Source: a virus
Taxonomy: Duplodnaviria > Heunggongvirae > Uroviricota > Caudoviricetes
Length of the DNA stretch: 37,529 nt
Reading direction: 5' to 3' (one strand)
Virus record (IMG/VR): IMGVR_UViG_2778261576_000005
Span: 1-37,529 of that record
Shown here: positions 1-31,542 of the stretch, piece after piece
Layout of the letters: every line of letters begins with the position of its first letter
Numbering within the stretch: the stretch's first letter is position 1
The notes under the pieces: model-generated
The model's input: the letters and a program-made list of their open reading frames with translations, nothing else
Database searches by the model: none
What the model was told of the DNA's origin: nothing
Position numbers and translations under genes: made by a program

Positions 1-20
1 CACTGTTTATCCATACAGTT
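1..20 (+). promoter_or_regulatory. LexA (SOS) box 1, CTGT-N8-ACAG, upstream of dinI-like gene
   Basis: caCTGTttatccatACAGtt matches the LexA consensus spacing. Confidence 0.6.
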
Positions 21-28
21 AAAAATAA

Positions 29-48
29 TACTGTATACAAACACAGTA
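29..48 (+). promoter_or_regulatory. LexA (SOS) box 2, near-consensus
   Basis: taCTGTatacaaacACAGta; lies 14 nt upstream of the ATG at 62, SD agaggga at 51-57. Confidence 0.7.
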
Positions 49-61
49 TAGAGGGACTTTT

Positions 62-310
62 ATGCGTATTGAAATCTGCATAGCCAAAGAAAAAATGACT
101 AAAATGCCAACCGGTGCTGTGGATGCGTTAAAGGAAGAATTAACCCGACGCATCAGTAAACGTTATGACGATGTAGAGGTGATCGTAAAAGCCACCAGCA
201 ACGATGGCCTTTCTGTTACACGCACCGCAGATAAGGATTCTGCAAAAACTTTTGTTCAGGAGACTCTGAAAGATACCTGGGAATCTGCTGATGAGTGGTT
301 TGTTCACTAA
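62..310 (+). CDS. dinI: DinI-family SOS-response protein (prophage-encoded)
   Basis: 82 aa; MRIE...[10 protein letters not shown] resembles DinI; two LexA boxes directly upstream. Confidence 0.8.
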
Positions 311-22867: not shown

Positions 22868-22946
22868 TTAGCCCCCTCTTAATTGCTGTTGGTCCTCTCA
22901 GATATGAGGGGAAGGGATCTTAATGACAGTCTGTTTATTATTTCAG

Positions 22947-23204
22947 TCAAACACTACCCTGTTGATGATTTCTCAGAAGCGAACTTGACTCCCAAGGGAA
23001 ACTCAACTTTCCGTTAAAACCACCAGCAGACATTCGTTCAATTTCCACAGAAATATCACTGAGCCGTTCTTCAAGCTCTGCTTTTTCTTTTACCAGACGG
23101 TTATAGCGGCTTAGATGAAGCTTTTGCTGCTCCAGCCAGTCTTCAAGCTGTTCAACAGTCATACCAGGGTTAAAAAAATATGGCTGCTGCTTTTCGCCCT
23201 GCAT
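22947..23204 (-). CDS. First late-operon gene, hypothetical (85 aa from ATG 23204)
   Basis: GGAGG SD 6 nt upstream of ATG at 23204; the longer track ORF would run through tR'. Confidence 0.45.
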   Translation of the reverse strand: MQGEKQQPYFFNPGMTVEQLEDWLEQQKLHLSRYNRLVKEKAELEERLSDISVEIERMSAGGFNGKLSFPWESSSLLRNHQQGSV

Positions 23205-23354: not shown

Positions 23355-24107
23355 TTATCTTGTCACTTTTCTCAATTGTGTCTCTGCATATGCTTCTTCC
23401 TGCCAGCACTTTGTAACCAGTTTATCAATGACATCTGCATATCCTTTGTACCACTGATAATCCGTCAGATCCGGTACCAGCTTCTGGACATGATGCCGCG
23501 CCAGTGTGGTTGGTAAACGGCTAAACCGGTTTCCATTGCAACGCCCACAAATCTTATAAACAGGCGCACCATGAAGCCGGGTTCTTTTTTCATCCAGTAC
23601 AATACCTTTCCCCTTGCACCCTCTGCACGCTGTGCTGACTTCTCCCTTACCATGACAATGCTGACATAGTTCCTTCACCCACTCTTCCTTGATAACAGAT
23701 TCCCCGCTTCTGGAGTGTTTCACCACTTCGCGCAATACATTATGAAATCCAGTACCAGCACAATGCTCACAGCGAGCCTTACTTGCCGCAGACCTGGAAT
23801 AATCAGCAAAGGCAAAATTCACAAGGTAAGGGATGATCTGTAACCGGGTTTCTTCACTCAATTTGTTCAATGTCGGGTTATCCAGTGCCATCGCGTAATT
23901 GAGCAGACCTTCAATCGCAAACTGAGGATCCTGAACACCAACTTTTGCCAGGAATAAGGCAAACCCAAGCGGTGCTTTCGACTGCACCATCCCCTGCGCA
24001 GCCATTACATCCGTAATTGTTAAACCACCAGAGCCTGTCGCCGGTGCGTCATCGCTCAATTTTGGAGATTTTGGGGAGTAATATTTTGGTAAGGCTTCAA
24101 GGTTCAT
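23355..24107 (-). CDS. Late antiterminator Q-like protein (QuuQ-type, 250 aa)
   Basis: Directly upstream of PR'/tR'/lysis genes; four CxxCxGxG-type motifs; DUF968 gene adjacent as in Qin prophage. Confidence 0.65.
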   Translation of the reverse strand: MNLEALPKYYSPKSPKLSDDAPATGSGGLTITDVMAAQGMVQSKAPLGFALFLAKVGVQDPQFAIEGLLNYAMALDNPTLNKLSEETRLQIIPYLVNFAFADYSRSAASKARCEHCAGTGFHNVLREVVKHSRSGESVIKEEWVKELCQHCHGKGEVSTACRGCKGKGIVLDEKRTRLHGAPVYKICGRCNGNRFSRLPTTLARHHVQKLVPDLTDYQWYKGYADVIDKLVTKCWQEEAYAETQLRKVTR

Positions 24108-24120
24108 GCTCGTTCTCCAC

Positions 24121-25116
24121 TTACGCCAGTACGCCTATTGCCAGCGCACAATCGATAAAACGAAATATCAGCTCCAGCTGGGAGCCATACTTCTCTTCAA
24201 ATGCCACGGTATCCGCATGCAGCTCGTCGTGATGCTTTCTGCACAAAGGCAACACAAAGAGGTCATGCGCTTTTGTACCCATTCCCCCCTGACCGTGGCC
24301 TATCAGGTGGTGGGGATCATCAGCAGGCTTTCCACAACATGCACACGGCTGTGTCTTAACCCAGCGTGTGTACTTTTCATTAACCCAGCGGCGACGTTTT
24401 GGGCGTAACATAAAAGACTCCGGCGACTCCGGATCCACTTTCAGCGCCAGCACCTTTTTCGCTTTATCCTGGATGATGCTGGTGGCAGGAACCGAAGGCA
24501 CAAGGTCACTTTCCCGGGTGACAGACGGCACAACAGGCTTCGGTAATCTCAGTGCCTTACGGGCTGCACTTTCCGGTAAGGCATCCGCCAGGTCATTACG
24601 AATCAGCCACCAGCACAGTTCCGGCATTGTCACAACGTGACTGTCATCAAAACCGAGATCCCGACGCACAACAGACAACACCCAGCGGGCACAGTTATCC
24701 GTTGCCATTGATTCCAGCCGTTCCGTGAACTGATCGCGCAGCTGGTTATCGCAGTGCCAGCACAGACGGATTGCGCCCGGAGCGTGTCGCATTGTTGTCA
24801 TGTTCTCGCTGTGCCAGTCGGAATGAGGCCACTGGCAGCCTTTTTCACGAAGTAACCAGCTTTCAAGACATTCCACGCCACCAGCACGACGGATCACTGC
24901 CTCATTGCGGAACACGGCCCGAACGGCAGGATCATCCGCCAGCGGTTGTGATGCCGCCGGAACGGCACCACTGGCGAAAGATGAATAACGCTCCGGCTCA
25001 GGCTCCAGCAGGACACGCCCCTGCATAAACAGGGGCATCAGCTCTGAACCTGGCCTGAACAATACGATCCCCATACGCGGGGCAATTTCAGGGGTCAGTA
25101 GTGCTCTCACGGTCAC
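24121..25116 (-). CDS. DUF968-like protein with C-terminal HNH-like Cys/His cluster
   Basis: 331 aa; CACCGKPADDPHHL...CRKHHDELH. Confidence 0.6.
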   Translation of the reverse strand: MTVRALLTPEIAPRMGIVLFRPGSELMPLFMQGRVLLEPEPERYSSFASGAVPAASQPLADDPAVRAVFRNEAVIRRAGGVECLESWLLREKGCQWPHSDWHSENMTTMRHAPGAIRLCWHCDNQLRDQFTERLESMATDNCARWVLSVVRRDLGFDDSHVVTMPELCWWLIRNDLADALPESAARKALRLPKPVVPSVTRESDLVPSVPATSIIQDKAKKVLALKVDPESPESFMLRPKRRRWVNEKYTRWVKTQPCACCGKPADDPHHLIGHGQGGMGTKAHDLFVLPLCRKHHDELHADTVAFEEKYGSQLELIFRFIDCALAIGVLA

Positions 25117-25117
25117 C

Positions 25118-25927
25118 TCAATGAACGGTATCGAGCAGCTTTAACAGCTCAGGGAATCGGGATTCGAAGAAATGCGGCTGCGTCTCGCGCGGATTTGCGG
25201 GACTGGTGATGTTCTTGCCGAACATGCAACCTTTCGCTGTCAGCGACCAGAATTTTTTGATGTTGTTAATCGCGGTACGGCTGTATCGTTCGCGCTGCTC
25301 GACGATCCCCAGCTTCACCATCTGGTGATATGCCTGATTAGCTGTCAGGCGGATACCATACTGTTTCAGCAGTGCACTCAGTGACAGTGTCGGGCGACTT
25401 GAGCCATCGTGTGCATCAGCAGGAGCATCAATGGCATAGCGCGGTGCCAGATTCGGTAAGCCAACAGCCTCCTGGAGTTTCTGACAGGCACCAAGCACAG
25501 ATGAGTTAGACAGGTTTAACTCCCGACGCATAAAGTCCAGCAGAATCACACCAGCCTGCATCTTGTCAGCAGCCTGTCCGGATAATTTTTCCGGTGCGCT
25601 GGTTACCATATCGAAAGTACGGATCACCTTCAGATGGAATGACGGGCTGATCCACATTGCATAGGCATACACCAGTTCCTTGCAGACATACGTTCCCCGT
25701 TCATTTCCCCCATGAATCACACTCACCGGGTCAACACCCAAATTCTGGGTGTTGGTCAATTCATGAACAAGCTCAACAGTTTGTTGGCTGGAAAGAAACT
25801 TTCCCGGCTCCTTGGTTCTGGCATTTGCACCAGATGCTACTGCTGCGCGATGCAGATCGTTCAGGCTGTAACGCCCATAAGCATCACGACGAACTTCAAT
25901 ACCATCAATGACCATCAGATTATTCAT
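25118..25927 (-). CDS. KilA-N domain protein
   Basis: 269 aa; N-terminal MVIDGIEVRRDAYGRYSLNDLH-type KilA-N region. Confidence 0.6.
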   Translation of the reverse strand: MNNLMVIDGIEVRRDAYGRYSLNDLHRAAVASGANARTKEPGKFLSSQQTVELVHELTNTQNLGVDPVSVIHGGNERGTYVCKELVYAYAMWISPSFHLKVIRTFDMVTSAPEKLSGQAADKMQAGVILLDFMRRELNLSNSSVLGACQKLQEAVGLPNLAPRYAIDAPADAHDGSSRPTLSLSALLKQYGIRLTANQAYHQMVKLGIVEQRERYSRTAINNIKKFWSLTAKGCMFGKNITSPANPRETQPHFFESRFPELLKLLDTVH

Positions 25928-25946: not shown

Positions 25947-26336
25947 TCAGGCGGCTGCACCCGCCGTTTTCTCGTACTTACTGATAGTGATCTCGACCTT
26001 CCCTTCCGGGATAACCGGTCCCCACTCCACCAGCATTCTTTTCACCTGACTGTCGTTCTCCCACACACCCGCGTGGGTCAGGGCGTCAAACAGCGCCTTG
26101 TTATAGTTGTCCAGATCGCGGATCCGGTTATCCGGAGGAAACAACACGATCTCCACTGAAGCAGGTGCCGACGTTGGTTTTGGCAGACGACGTAACTGCT
26201 CAACTATTGCTGCACACGCCGCGCTCTGGAATTTTCGCCCCGCCGCGCTTATCAGGCTCTTACCTGCAAACGCCCCTTTGTTGGGGTGTCGCCAGTACGT
26301 GTTCACGCTGGGCGGAAAAGGCAGTATTAGCTTCAT
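25947..26336 (-). CDS. rusA: RusA Holliday junction resolvase
   Basis: 129 aa; PPSVNTYWRH, RDLDN and FDALT motifs. Confidence 0.85.
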   Translation of the reverse strand: MKLILPFPPSVNTYWRHPNKGAFAGKSLISAAGRKFQSAACAAIVEQLRRLPKPTSAPASVEIVLFPPDNRIRDLDNYNKALFDALTHAGVWENDSQVKRMLVEWGPVIPEGKVEITISKYEKTAGAAA

Positions 26337-26659
26337 ACTTTCAGGCCCCTCTCATGTAACCAGTGGGTTGCACGCAGCCTTGCGTTTTCCTCACCGGCAA
26401 GCAGTGCGCGGATAATCCCGACCGCCTCGCTGTCGTCGTCCTTCACCGCGGTATGAAGCGTTATCCCCCGGGCCACGCCACGCTTTATCGTGATGACGCC
26501 TTTTTTCTCCAGTGCGCGAAGATGCTCCACTGCTGCATTCACTGAACGATATCCCAGCATGGTTGCCACCTCCTGATTGGTTGGCGGGAAGCCACGTTCT
26601 TTCTGGTAAGAAATCAGCATATCCAGCACCTGCTGCTGGCATTGAGTTAACGTCGTCAT
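26333..26659 (-). CDS. LexA N-terminal DNA-binding domain protein lacking the S24 peptidase domain
   Basis: 108 aa; QQQVLDML...GFPPTNQEVATMLGYRSVNAAVEHLRALEKKGVI closely parallels the LexA winged HTH; no Ser-Lys dyad region. Confidence 0.65.
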   Translation of the reverse strand: MTTLTQCQQQVLDMLISYQKERGFPPTNQEVATMLGYRSVNAAVEHLRALEKKGVITIKRGVARGITLHTAVKDDDSEAVGIIRALLAGEENARLRATHWLHERGLKV

Positions 26660-27309
26660 GCCGCCATCTCCCTGACCAGTTTTTCTGCCTGCTGGCGAAC
26701 CTGCGCCAGAAAGGCCTCACCACATGCCTCAAGTTCATCGCGCCCGATGTAGCTGATTGCCGGTCCCTTCCAGGTCTTGTCGAAAACAGCAATAGCACCA
26801 GCGAAGAAAGCGCCTGTCGGCACCTGCTTCTCATCCTTCGGGATAAACCAGGCAGGCAGTTCAAAACCAATACGCCCGCGAATAAAAGCAATATGATCTG
26901 CATCTTCCGGCCACCACACTTCGCTGGTGGCAGCTTTGATCAGGAAAACATAGCGCCCGCCTTTATCACGCATGGCACTGGCATGCTTCATGATGTAACG
27001 CATGCCGGTGATGTATTGCCCCTCATGCTGACTGGCGCGGCTGTATGGGGGATTACCAAAGGCAGCACCTTTAAGCTCCGCAAGGCGTTCTGACCAGTCA
27101 TGCGCCAGCGCGTTGTCTTCCGCCGTGTAATACGCAGCACATTTGGCGTTATCACCGTCAGTGAACAGATCCAGAACAAACGGGCCAAACAGGGTGTTAA
27201 TTCCCCAGAAAATGTTGTCCGGCGTGCGCCACTGATCGCCCACTTCCTTCAGTTCATGGGCTGGTTTGTTCCGCAGTTCCGCCAGCGCCTGGCAATATTT
27301 ATTACTCAT
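26656..27309 (-). CDS. Phage N6-adenine DNA methyltransferase (Dam-like)
   Basis: NPPY catalytic motif; TAATG stop-start overlap with upstream gene. Confidence 0.8.
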   Translation of the reverse strand: MSNKYCQALAELRNKPAHELKEVGDQWRTPDNIFWGINTLFGPFVLDLFTDGDNAKCAAYYTAEDNALAHDWSERLAELKGAAFGNPPYSRASQHEGQYITGMRYIMKHASAMRDKGGRYVFLIKAATSEVWWPEDADHIAFIRGRIGFELPAWFIPKDEKQVPTGAFFAGAIAVFDKTWKGPAISYIGRDELEACGEAFLAQVRQQAEKLVREMAA

Positions 27310-27803
27310 TAAGCCCCCACGTAATTCCCTGAGAGATACCACTCTTCACCTGATGCAGCCCGCTTACTGCTTTTCCGTAAACACCGTTCACGACGCGCCA
27401 GAAAATTGTTTCGTTCTGGCTGGGAGTGGCTTTCACGGAATGCCGCCATCCACACCGTTGCAGCACGACGGTATAAGCCCCTCGACTCCAGTTCTTCAGC
27501 CTGGCGGGTCAGGCACAAAATCACCCGGGGGTCGTTAGTGCCGACATAGAACTTGCGCACAGGTCTGGTTTCACGAACTGGTTGTGGTTCCGGCTCCTGC
27601 GCTCTCTCAGTCAGGCGCGAGAAATGTCTGCGTGTATCTCCTTCACAACGGTGAGCCACACGCCCACTCTGACGTAACTTGCTTGCTGACTGCAGAACGC
27701 GCTGCCGTGAGTAACCTGCAAAAGCATCCGCAATGTCTCCGGAAGTACACCCCGGATGGGCTTCAATGAATTTCTGAACTTCATTCAAAAGACTCATGAT
27801 CAC
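27309..27803 (-). CDS. PerC/ANR-like regulator domain protein
   Basis: 164 aa; C-terminal GLYRRAATVWMAAF...RRERC resembles PerC family. Confidence 0.45.
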   Translation of the reverse strand: MIMSLLNEVQKFIEAHPGCTSGDIADAFAGYSRQRVLQSASKLRQSGRVAHRCEGDTRRHFSRLTERAQEPEPQPVRETRPVRKFYVGTNDPRVILCLTRQAEELESRGLYRRAATVWMAAFRESHSQPERNNFLARRERCLRKSSKRAASGEEWYLSGNYVGA

Positions 27804-28618: not shown

Positions 28619-28839
28619 GCTGCACCTCCGAGATGCTTCATGTTTTTTCCGGAGCAAAAGGCTATAAGCGGCATACTGACGCGGTAATTACGGCCCAGCG
28701 GTTCACAAACCACCTTCTGACATTCACGGTCAACCAGGCTAACACGTAGAACATGCCCTGCAGGCGTGGTGTACCACTGACCGGGGCGAGGACAACGGAA
28801 AGTCTGATTGGTAAATCGTTTGAAAATATTCCGGATCAT
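28615..28839 (-). CDS. Small Cys-containing basic protein, translationally coupled between Rha and replication gene
   Basis: 74 aa; ATGA overlaps at both ends; four Cys residues. Confidence 0.45.
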   Translation of the reverse strand: MIRNIFKRFTNQTFRCPRPGQWYTTPAGHVLRVSLVDRECQKVVCEPLGRNYRVSMPLIAFCSGKNMKHLGGAA

Positions 28840-29987
28840 TTGCGCCCCCTTACCTCTGAAGAGTTCAGCGACGAATGAATAAGACGGGCAAGAAATGCCG
28901 CATCGTTAATTCGGTCATACAGACTTACAGCCAGCGGTGATTCAGCTTTTTCCAGCATGGGATAAAGCTGCTGCAACCAGACCTGATGAATTGATGAAAT
29001 GTAGGAACAGAGAACGCTGGCGTTATGTGCAACGTCGCTCGGTACAGCGGGCTTTGAAAGCTGTTTCTCCATCTGGTTAAAGGCATTGATATATGCCTCT
29101 TTGAACTGGGCAGCACGTTTACCCGTGAAACCCATAGCAAGAAACGCAAAACCGTCGCGTGTGATTTGGTAGCAAGGAAGTTTGCGACCTGTGCAATCAG
29201 TGTAATCACTCACCGAAAAATTGCGGGCAGTGAATGATGCTGAGCATTCAAGCGTGCGGATCTTTTTCAGTACATCGTCATGACGTTTGGAGAAGAAGTT
29301 GGCAACAGCCAGGGATGAAGTAACAGCCTGACCATCAACGATGGCAATTTCAGGTTGAGTGAGGGTTGGGATCGTAGCCATGATGGCAGCCTCTTTGGTG
29401 ATTTTTAATAACTCACCACCAAGGCTTTCCACGACCTTATTGGTGGTGAGACATACAGGGGTGGAAATACCGGTCACCAAAGAACCCGGCCCAACCGAAG
29501 TTGGCCCTGCACGCCCCACCATAATTTGGGCGTAATGCTGCTCATGACACAAAAAAACCGCAAGAGCGCGGTTGTGCGCTTTGGTGAATTCCGGGTTTCC
29601 ACGCCCGGCACCCGTTTTATAAGGTGCCTGAACAGTGTAACGTCCCGGAATGGCAGAATCAATGTGCTGGTGGTCCTTCACACTCAACAAAATCACGCCT
29701 GAATTTCCACAAAGGACTAAAGCACTCATGCGGGTAGTCTTTGCGAAGATAGATAACGCGCTGTGTTTCTGGCTCCCAACGAATAACATGAACATAAAGT
29801 CCTCTTCCGTCACGAAACCAGCGGTTAAGTTCCTGCACAACTCGCCCCCCACAGTCAGGTAAAGTTCTCTGTGGTTACTTACAGCCAGGTGATTTGGTAA
29901 TCTGCATTCATGCCGTAACAACAGGTGTGCAGCGACACTGACCACCAGCTGTTGCGACAAACGGTTATTTGCCGTTAAACTGTTCAT
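28836..29987 (-). CDS. Rha-family regulatory domain protein (Rha domain from internal ATG 29381; 202-codon open N-terminal extension)
   Basis: Rha motifs in the C-terminal half; ORF start at 29987 makes an ATGA overlap with the upstream gene stop. Confidence 0.55.
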   Translation of the reverse strand: MNSLTANNRLSQQLVVSVAAHLLLRHECRLPNHLAVSNHRELYLTVGGELCRNLTAGFVTEEDFMFMLFVGSQKHSALSIFAKTTRMSALVLCGNSGVILLSVKDHQHIDSAIPGRYTVQAPYKTGAGRGNPEFTKAHNRALAVFLCHEQHYAQIMVGRAGPTSVGPGSLVTGISTPVCLTTNKVVESLGGELLKITKEAAIMATIPTLTQPEIAIVDGQAVTSSLAVANFFSKRHDDVLKKIRTLECSASFTARNFSVSDYTDCTGRKLPCYQITRDGFAFLAMGFTGKRAAQFKEAYINAFNQMEKQLSKPAVPSDVAHNASVLCSYISSIHQVWLQQLYPMLEKAESPLAVSLYDRINDAAFLARLIHSSLNSSEVRGRK

Positions 29988-30825: not shown

Positions 30826-30890
30826 ATGTAGGATATCCAACATACCAATGTCAAGAATCCTACATGGGCATGTGGTAGGATTGCCTACAT
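30826..30890. promoter_or_regulatory. OR region: three operator repeats with divergent PR (minus) and PRM (plus)
   Basis: ATGTAGGATATCCAACAT at 30826-30843 plus two related sites at about 30848-30865 and 30870-30890; minus-strand TTGACA-17-CTACAT upstream of cro. Confidence 0.6.
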
Positions 30891-31542
30891 GATGAACATG
30901 AGTGATCGTATTCGCCAAAGGCGAAAAGAACTGAACCTGACACAACAAGCACTGGCTGATTTGACTGGTGTGAACCGTGTCACGGTTACTGGATGGGAAA
31001 AGGACGACTACCAACCAAATGGAGCCAACCTTCAAGCCCTAGCCAACGCACTTAAATGCGATCCTCTGTGGCTTGTTAGCGGAAAAGGCTCGCCTGAACC
31101 AAAGATAAATCTAAAACCTGAAATATTCGCAGTTAAAAAAGTCCCCCTCATCTCGTGGGTTCAGGCGGGTTCATGGACAATGACGGAGCCTGGTGTCAGG
31201 AAAGAAGATGCTGAAGAGTGGGTTTATACTACCGCCCTTGTATCAGAAATGGCATTTGCACTACGGGTCCGTGGTGATTCAATGACCAATCCCCTCGGCT
31301 CACCATCGATACCAGAAGGTTCTATCGTTATCGTAGAGCCAGATATTATTGATACAGAGTGTATTAACGGAAAAATCGTTGTTGCCCATATCAATGGTGG
31401 GCAAGAAGCGACACTCAAAAAATTTGTTGAGGACTGGCCGAACAGGTATCTCGTCCCACTAAATCCTAACTATAAAACTATTGAATGCGGTGAGAACTGC
31501 AGAATAGTTGGTCTTGTCAAACAAGTAATAATGGATTTTTGA
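30889..31542 (+). CDS. CI-type prophage repressor (HTH plus S24 LexA-like autopeptidase)
   Basis: N-terminal XRE-type HTH; C-terminal GDSM Ser nucleophile and conserved Lys. Confidence 0.85.
   Translation: MMNMSDRIRQRRKELNLTQQALADLTGVNRVTVTGWEKDDYQPNGANLQALANALKCDPLWLVSGKGSPEPKINLKPEIFAVKKVPLISWVQAGSWTMTEPGVRKEDAEEWVYTTALVSEMAFALRVRGDSMTNPLGSPSIPEGSIVIVEPDIIDTECINGKIVVAHINGGQEATLKKFVEDWPNRYLVPLNPNYKTIECGENCRIVGLVKQVIMDF

Follow-up and report, generated by a model that had tools for sequence, protein, structure and literature searches.

The window considered here is the whole 37,529-nucleotide stretch of IMG/VR record IMGVR_UViG_2778261576_000005 (Caudoviricetes, positions 1 to 37,529). On its minus strand, at 26333-26659, it carries a gene whose 108-amino-acid (aa) product is confirmed as the DNA-binding domain of LexA without the autocleavage domain; the match is far beyond chance. 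The best reading of this protein is as a RecA-proof surrogate of LexA, which would re-repress LexA-box promoters; we give it a probability of about 45%. The LexA-like gene lies in the delayed-early (‘nin-like’) block upstream of the late-gene regulator Q, in a prophage of lambdoid organisation that resembles mEp460. The gene and its parts are as follows.

26333-26659, minus strand: LexA-like gene, 108 aa plus stop (list of open reading frames, ORFs; Pfam, PHROG, NCBIfam and PDB matches; annotations of homologues)
26450-26659, minus strand: LexA-type winged helix-turn-helix, codons 1-70 (AlphaFold2 model; Foldseek against 1lea and 3jso)
26639-26641, minus strand: Cys codon 7 (residue counts)
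26504-26545, minus strand: recognition helix, codons 39-52, SVNAAVEHLRALEK (in LexA, SPNAAEEHLKALAR) (alignments and family residue counts)
26336-26437, minus strand: family-specific helical hairpin, codons 75-108 (AlphaFold2 model; relatives of 39-52% identity; substitution ratios)

The ORF begins with ATG and runs for 108 codons. Its product matches the Pfam LexA_DNA_bind model (PF01726) from end to end (1-65/65; E 2.9e-19; 69 bits against a cutoff of 23.7), and PHROG 362, ‘transcriptional repressor’, at 1.2e-59, with residues 1-108 on profile positions 1-106 of 106, tail included. The N-terminal domain of LexA in PDB entry 1lea is matched at 6e-16 with residues 2-70 aligned without a gap; counted from that alignment, identity to E. 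coli LexA is 35/70 residues, or 50%. The AlphaFold2 model (mean predicted local distance difference test score, pLDDT, of 80) places helices at 6-22, 28-35 and 40-52 and the strands of the wing at 56-58 and 66-68. Foldseek superposes 66-69 residues of this model on structures of the LexA N-terminal domain, the DNA complex 3jso among them, with a root-mean-square deviation (rmsd) of 1.1-1.3 Å and 50-52% identity. A Pfam search of the 108-aa protein, which ends at residue 108, gave no match to Peptidase_S24. The lexA equivalog TIGR00498 (NCBIfam) is matched at model positions 1-91 of 203 only, with 70.5 bits against a cutoff of 110.95. With neither S24 domain nor cutoff score nor conserved cleavage site, the protein is not a LexA orthologue. 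A preliminary description of this DNA had called it the LexA winged helix-turn-helix shorn of its S24 domain, and that identification stands; as a discovery the gene does not, since thousands of genomes already carry it under the label of a LexA-family regulator. Membership of a defence system was considered and rejected: PADLOC defence-system models gave only a weak CARF3 match (3.6e-4), over the helix-turn-helix region, and none that was meaningful.

What stands in place of the S24 domain was examined in a family set of 269 loci (public assemblies and IMG/VR), comprising 158 distinct proteins in 14 clusters at 75% identity, from which all the residue counts below are taken. About 35 residues follow the wing, modelled as two helices (75-87 and 93-103) after a flexible, low-confidence linker (71-74). 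The pattern EAVxLLRALLAxExxARxRAxxxLxxxG recurs in relatives down to 39% identity, and this hairpin is proposed, from the model, as a dimerisation element that may replace the lost domain. HMMER aligns residues 79-90 (GIIRALLAGE) with LexA 75-86 (LVGRVAAGE), so that A88-G89 falls on the A84-G85 cleavage site of LexA. The pair at this position varies freely across clusters (SG, EG, AD, NG, DD, HN, TR, SC and others) and is a relic, not a working site; the idea of a conserved site for cleavage in trans was rejected on the same variation.

The tail might also be read as the business end of the protein, docking host LexA, RecA filaments or some other host protein and so acting as a decoy or tether that alters LexA cleavage. 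The HMMER alignment, Ala-Gly pair included, would fit such a role, as would the conservation of the tail under purifying selection and the presence in one clade of a dinI-like RecA modulator as operon partner. Against it, other members of the family do not keep the Ala-Gly pair, and the segment is predicted by AlphaFold2 to be helical, whereas the cleavage region of LexA is strand and loop. RecA filaments, moreover, engage the C-terminal domain of LexA, which is absent here (8trg is among the PDB and Foldseek matches). This reading of the tail is very improbable.

Substitution patterns point to purifying selection on both halves of the protein. The ratio of non-synonymous to synonymous substitution (dN/dS), calculated by the method of Nei and Gojobori for the DNA-binding domain and the tail separately, is 0.00-0.25 for the former and 0.07-0.36 for the latter. 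This bears on the possibility that the gene is a decaying remnant of a captured lexA, with no present function. It does resemble a lexA truncated just after the cleavage site, and the databases hold frameshifted or fused copies (P0023 and P0033, for example, and the Dam fusions P0025, P0092 and P0098). Yet dN/dS of the DNA-binding domain in the window-type cluster is 0.00 at a dS of 0.11, with values of 0.19-0.36 elsewhere. An exhaustive HMMER search found full-length relatives at 39-52% identity with the same build of LexA domain plus tail; a distant member, P0139, still matches PHROG 362 at 3.4e-38 over profile positions 2-105. The 1.5-kb segment containing Dam, LexA-like and RusA genes is present in 2673/5426 complete E. 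coli genomes at 95-99% identity, and the gene has a good Shine-Dalgarno sequence (GGGAG, 8 nucleotides upstream of the ATG) and start and stop codons coupled to those of its neighbours. Selection and conservation appear largely to refute the remnant, which is hardly credible as an explanation.

The residues that read DNA are largely those of LexA. In helix III of LexA, S39, N41, A42, E44 and E45 are reported to contact DNA (PMC3091678). Four of these five are found in the window protein (S39, N41, A42 and E45); position 44 is Val. No family protein departs from S39 or N41, and very few from A42; H46 is conserved in most clusters and is Met in clusters 2 and 4. In the wing, K53 is invariant and R64 conserved.

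Candidate targets for such a protein are present in the window itself, at its left end.

1-48, plus strand: twin canonical LexA boxes over the promoter of a dinI-like gene (pattern search; position weight matrix, PWM)
1-20, plus strand: LexA box 1, CACTGTTTATCCATACAGTT (PWM 21.3)
29-48, plus strand: LexA box 2, TACTGTATACAAACACAGTA (PWM 23.8)
62-310, plus strand: dinI-like gene, 82 aa (Pfam DinI 1.1e-19)

The earlier claim of twin boxes ahead of a dinI-like gene is borne out: both are perfect CTGT-N8-ACAG sites, and their scores lie inside the range of known E. coli boxes, with a PWM made from an approximate set of twenty such boxes. They are the only sites of the window above the range of shuffled sequence. 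In existing annotation the mEp460 counterpart of the site is called a promoter and that of VT1-Sakai a putative SOS box; the dinI-like locus is 99.7% identical to that of mEp460, and the LexA-like gene 98.5%. The twin boxes are thus a candidate phage target of the LexA-like protein. A third perfect CTGT-N8-ACAG, at 29869-29884, lies inside an ORF with Ash and Rha regions and is taken as a chance occurrence, given its low score (6.9) and intragenic position. A degenerate relative of a box that recurs downstream of Q in this phage group, GTCTGTTTATTATTTCAGTC (PWM 9.3), is found in the window at 22929-22948, with a 108-aa ORF on one side and the holin gene on the other.

In some relatives, box and gene stand close together. 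The proteins of clusters 3, 6, 7, 12 and 13 have 112-135 residues, most with an N-terminal extension, and a strong LexA box (scores 17-30) is found no more than 1 kb upstream of the gene in 28/29 of their loci. In most of these the box faces the LexA-like gene from a nearly constant distance, about -437 to -458 or -534 to -615; its spacer sequence is not the same from locus to locus, and this speaks for selection on the box rather than recent shared ancestry. The box adjoins a sigma-70-like promoter (TTGCAA-17-AATAAT in locus L007), and a terminator-like hairpin, read by eye, lies upstream of that promoter. In clusters 3, 7 and 13 a dinI-like gene (Pfam DinI 8e-22) is the first gene after the box in 19/21 loci; it is followed by a gene designated orfX (PHROG 1813) and then by the LexA-like gene. 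At L019, a locus read in detail, a DUF968 gene and a Q-like gene come next. Species-level genomes place this SOS-promoter clade in Klebsiella and Enterobacter.

The product of orfX (L019 5483-5788, L007 5713-5961, L009 5724-5951) is 75-101 aa long, has no Pfam match and shares the motif YxxIRCxDxxxVAxxxSFP...YRRGxxVSFxPL. In the SOS-promoter clades its gene always lies between the box or the dinI-like gene and the LexA-like gene; no counterpart was seen among the ORF translations of the window, which were looked over without a formal search. The two genes that the preliminary description connected over a distance of 26 kb in the window are thus operon partners behind a LexA box in relatives. 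Window-type dinI with its boxes also occurs in at least 29/49 of the full phage genomes that carry a window-type LexA-like gene.

A complementary view comes from palindromes with CTGT half-sites, counted over the 269 loci at spacings of 2-14 nucleotides against composition-matched controls. Enrichment was found at spacing 8 only, the spacing of the LexA box, where 87 distinct sites compare with 29 on average in the controls. Palindromes of other spacing, as an altered dimer geometry might prefer, were considered and rejected, none being enriched. The proposal of the preliminary description that the protein could occupy SOS boxes and so decouple or retune the SOS response is plausible; it draws indirect support from the conservation of S39, N41 and A42, from the enrichment at spacing 8 and from the box-headed dinI operon of the related clade.

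The scenario for a RecA-insensitive surrogate would run as follows. Inactivation of the S24-type cI repressor would allow the delayed-early transcript, LexA-like gene included, to be made; the winged helix-turn-helix, with its LexA-type residues, would read CTGT half-sites; the conserved amphipathic hairpin would hold two monomers together, as the S24 domain does in LexA; and the dimer would occupy CTGT-N8-ACAG boxes. Lacking the catalytic Ser/Lys domain, and with an Ala-Gly scissile bond that its family does not conserve, the protein would be out of reach of activated RecA. Repression of promoters under LexA control would return in lytic growth with the damage signal still present: that of the prophage dinI-like gene at 1-48, those of host SOS genes and, in the Klebsiella-type operons, the promoter of the LexA-like gene itself. 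Of the elements of this account, the fold, the domain loss, the conserved residues, the place in the operon, purifying selection and the genomic association with LexA boxes and dinI are shown; that the protein binds LexA boxes, pairs by means of its tail, represses and so serves the phage is inferred.

A broader version makes the gene a prophage ‘SOS-off’ device. The uncleavable surrogate would re-repress the host SOS regulon, and with it the LexA-controlled genes of co-resident prophages, in the course of lytic development; in Klebsiella and Enterobacter it would do so together with a DinI-like RecA modulator and the PHROG 1813 protein, in a self-limiting LexA-box operon. This version is tentative, and on balance rather unlikely.

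A number of observations weigh against the surrogate altogether. In the window, a PWM scan found no strong LexA box near the LexA-like gene, the nearest strong boxes being 26 kb off; among window-type loci with enough flanking sequence, 0/80 have a LexA box within 1 kb upstream. E44 is retained in no family protein (A, V, T or F being found instead), and E45, kept in most clusters, is elsewhere D, L, A, I or S. The subclade of the window (E. coli type) has Cys at position 7, which is Arg in LexA and in every other cluster. With Leu at position 45, cluster 3 nonetheless keeps a LexA box upstream, so that this box may serve host LexA only. Many dinI-carrying phages have no LexA-like gene, and the co-occurrence of the two is confounded by shared ancestry, the sample being phylogenetically redundant. 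A new dimer module could impose a different geometry or spacing of half-sites. Self-repression in the operons of box, dinI-like and LexA-like genes would also throttle Q downstream, an awkward logic. Full-text literature yielded no functional study of the PHROG 362 LexA-like family, only catalogue mentions. Finally, the sole studied analogue among truncated LexA proteins of phages, gp6 of GIL01, is an activator of changed specificity.

That analogue suggests a different perspective, in which the protein regulates transcription of its own phage alone: its LexA-derived domain would have been turned to a site in the phage genome (near late or moron promoters, for example), there to activate or repress phage genes, with no general effect on SOS boxes. 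As the only characterised phage-encoded truncated homologue of LexA, gp6 activates late genes at a distinct site; the LexA-like gene sits just before Q in nearly all loci; and the PHROG and NCBI labels say simply transcriptional regulator or repressor. With E44 lost throughout and E45 variable, specificity could have shifted. On the other side, the family keeps S-x-N-A-A-x-E-H-L, S39 and N41 being invariant, where the corresponding helix of gp6 is changed (SHKTAHRYL). The palindrome counts brought up no conserved alternative site and no enriched spacing other than that of LexA, CTGT half-sites being the only ones tried. BLASTP gave no alignment between the LexA-like protein and gp6 at E <= 100. 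Descent from gp6 was rejected on this result, which suggests independent origins and leaves gp6 as an analogy only. A retargeted factor of this kind is fairly unlikely.

The neighbourhood of the gene lends itself to yet another interpretation. Its members in the window are these.

26656-26659, minus strand: ATGA overlap of Dam stop and LexA-like start (the plus strand reads TCAT)
26333-26336, minus strand: ATGA overlap of LexA-like stop and RusA start (the plus strand reads TCAT)
26656-27309, minus strand: phage Dam-family N6-adenine methyltransferase, upstream neighbour (Pfam Dam 1.2e-45)
25947-26336, minus strand: RusA Holliday-junction resolvase, downstream neighbour (Pfam RusA 2e-14)
23355-25927, minus strand: remainder of the delayed-early block (Pfam)
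25118-25927, minus strand: KilA-N protein (Pfam)
24121-25116, minus strand: DUF968/HNH protein (Pfam)
23355-24107, minus strand: Q-type antiterminator (Pfam)
30889-31542, plus strand: cI-type prophage repressor, HTH_3 plus Peptidase_S24, divergent gene (Pfam)

Along the minus strand the order is CII/CP76-like, Ash/Rha, HTH_36/DnaD_N replication-type, PerC-like (yfdN type), Dam, LexA-like, RusA, KilA-N, DUF968/HNH and Q, with lysis genes farther on. The placement in a nin-like block and the translational coupling to Dam and RusA, both claimed at the outset, are as described. This gene order, together with the divergent S24-type cI, suggests that the block is released once the cleavable repressor is lost. 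The position typical of PHROG 362, in the nin-like region from replication genes to Q and as a rule directly upstream of rusA, DUF968 or both, is that found in the window. For Dam, the mechanical ORF extends to a GTG at 27342; the start at 27309 rests on a PADLOC MTase_II match that begins at residue 12 and on the annotated length in locus L001. The Ash/Rha ORF (28836-29987, minus strand) is a single frame of 383 aa with an Ash region (residues 117-213) and a Rha domain (223-308) and no stop between them; it may be two genes merged by the mechanical ORF finder, the Rha part beginning near MATIPTL.

Such tight packing could mean that the protein is a DNA-binding accessory of RusA, of the DUF968/HNH nuclease or of Dam, and modulates recombination, replication restart or methylation, not transcription. 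Its start codon shares bases with the Dam stop, and its stop codon with the RusA start. RusA lies no more than 60 bp downstream in 210/260 related loci (no more than 800 bp in 235/260), including relatives of 39-52% identity whose replication and Q modules are not alike, and DUF968 is downstream in all loci inspected. The association with RusA is nevertheless broken in clusters 3, 7 and 13, which have no RusA downstream; the idea of a RusA partner is weakened by this absence. In L019 the gene lies between dinI-like/orfX and DUF968, and the upstream neighbour is not constant, being Dam, a cytosine-type methylase, a replication protein or orfX. The conserved residues that read DNA argue for sequence-specific binding. 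Gene order in lambdoid nin regions is, besides, conserved by mosaic inheritance and not necessarily by shared function. An accessory role is improbable.

The LexA-like gene belongs to a widespread element. The 1.5-kb segment counted above in E. coli genomes is found also in 51 phage records, among them mEp460, SfII, SfV, SfIV, cdtI, Kati, Stx2a_1447 and fifteen Stx2c phages; over the gene itself, nucleotide identity to mEp460, SfII, SfV orf42, Stx2c and cdtI phage genes is 95-98.5%. The window protein is a typical member of PHROG 362, a family of lambdoid phages with PF01726 as its only domain. The existence and domain content of the gene are thus in public annotation already, under such names as ‘LexA family transcriptional regulator’, ‘LexA DNA binding domain protein’ (mEp460), ‘LexA-like protein’ and ‘transcriptional repressor’. 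Some phage records have ‘SOS-response repressor and protease LexA’, ‘RecA-mediated autopeptidases’ or ‘LexA repressor’; labels of protease or autopeptidase are wrong for a protein with no S24 domain. The neighbouring Dam gene is labelled ‘phosphoadenosine phosphosulfate reductase’ in some RefSeq phage records, which looks like an annotation error. A survey of Shiga-toxin (Stx) phages lists the gene as a pham with pfam01726 and says nothing further of it (PMC8136144). Function, an analysis of conservation, and the operon of box, dinI-like, orfX and LexA-like genes are absent from the literature found.

A search of viral contigs with P0213 returned no relatives, and a scan of genome contigs with a cluster-3 protein brought up three prophage copies only, most of its matches being true lexA genes from Vibrio and Photobacterium. 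In E. coli K-12 MG1655 the cognate cryptic prophage CPS-53 (2472112-2473246, L320) keeps yfdO, the PerC-like yfdN and a truncated Dam gene, yfdM (276 bp), which are homologous to the genes that precede the LexA-like gene; the block of LexA-like, RusA, KilA-N, DUF968 and Q genes is deleted, with tail-fibre remnants in its place. As CPS-53 ends at the truncated yfdM, the LexA-like gene is missing at that K-12 locus. Two variants of the architecture were met along the way. Tandem LexA_DNA_bind stretches occur in proteins of 140-350 aa (P0132, P0133, P0148, P0151, P0153, P0156, P0159 and P0163), which would be single-chain pseudo-dimers of the LexA domain. Cluster 5 (L046-L053) is a 158-aa variant with a longer, different C-terminal region and no helical-hairpin motif; rusA lies within 60 bp, and a weaker LexA-like box, TGCTGGATGTTTGTTCAGTG, is found about 800 bp downstream of the gene start.

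LexA boxes turned up at three further places in related loci. One, strong and canonical, lies within the coding sequence of a 230-aa cI-type repressor allele of related prophages, about 210 nucleotides from the start, in 24 window-type IMG/VR loci (for example L215, at 3546) and at L001 25196-25215; it reads TACTGTATGTAAAAACAGTA, or TACTGTTTTTACATACAGTA on the other strand, and the cI allele of the window is without it. Another, TACTGTATTTATGAACAGTG, follows a hairpin directly 3' of rusA (L215 8765-8784, L195, L204, L228 and L229, and also L242, L243, L248, L251 and L258). In L215 and the nine other window-type loci it precedes the gene of a 271-aa protein that stands in for the KilA-N gene, an arrangement that gives this gene an SOS-controlled promoter to itself; in the window only 19 bp separate rusA from the KilA-N gene, and no box lies between. 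The third (C/TACTGTAAAAATAAACAGTG) recurs downstream of Q, between +3900 and +6100 relative to the LexA-like gene, in some 25 window-type loci; in L009 (8739-8758) an N6_N4 methyltransferase gene lies just downstream of it. Phages of this group seem often to carry morons under LexA control.

Should the protein bind SOS boxes and resist cleavage, a very common prophage gene could cut short or dampen the SOS response from within. Such an effect would influence for how long, once DNA is damaged, SOS-controlled mutagenesis, toxin genes, colicins and the antirepressors that LexA controls in neighbouring prophages stay switched on. It would bear also on the induction of Shiga-toxin phages, as the carriers include Shigella serotype-converting and Stx2c phages. 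If the ‘SOS-off’ device is real, prophages actively manage the duration of the SOS response and cross-induction among themselves. The operon of box, dinI-like, orfX and LexA-like genes in the relatives is a specific new lead.

Comparison with known systems begins with E. coli LexA. With the LexA N-terminal domain (residues 1-84) the window protein shares the winged helix-turn-helix (rmsd 1.1-1.3 Å; 50% identity over residues 1-70), the helix residues S39, N41, A42, E45, H46 and L47, and K53 and R64 of the wing. LexA has an S24 dimerisation domain with Ser119 and Lys156; the phage protein has neither domain nor catalytic pair, and the Ala-Gly site is not conserved in its family. E44 of LexA is replaced, and the 35-residue hairpin after the wing is not found in LexA. 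The genes differ too in their setting, lexA being an autoregulated host gene and the LexA-like gene part of a prophage delayed-early operon.

A functional analogy to the proposed action is with Ind- alleles of LexA such as S119A and G85D (PDB 1jhh and 1jhf, both among the PDB and Foldseek matches), operator binders that activated RecA cannot inactivate, so that SOS stays or becomes repressed. The LexA-like protein would likewise be an uncleavable operator binder. The Ind- mutants are full-length and dimerise through the S24 domain; the phage protein lacks that whole domain, and its dimer element, if it has one, is different.

The other comparison is with gp6 of GIL01, a tectivirus of Bacillus thuringiensis. 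This 66-aa truncated homologue of LexA is made together with the early gene products and switches on the late promoter P3 (Fornelos et al. 2018, PMC6182141). It binds a distinct, non-LexA site over the -35 element of P3, with K38 essential, and by its authors' account the last 14 residues are the wing itself, with nothing beyond (PMC6182141). Both proteins are phage-encoded LexA DNA-binding domains with no cleavage domain; gp6 ends at the wing, and the LexA-like protein, at 108 aa, goes on into the helical hairpin. Their recognition helices also differ: against the SPNAAEEHL of LexA, the window protein has SVNAAVEHL and gp6 the changed helix given above. If the LexA-like protein should prove to be a phage-specific regulator instead of a LexA surrogate, it would provide a second, independently evolved case of the gp6 principle.

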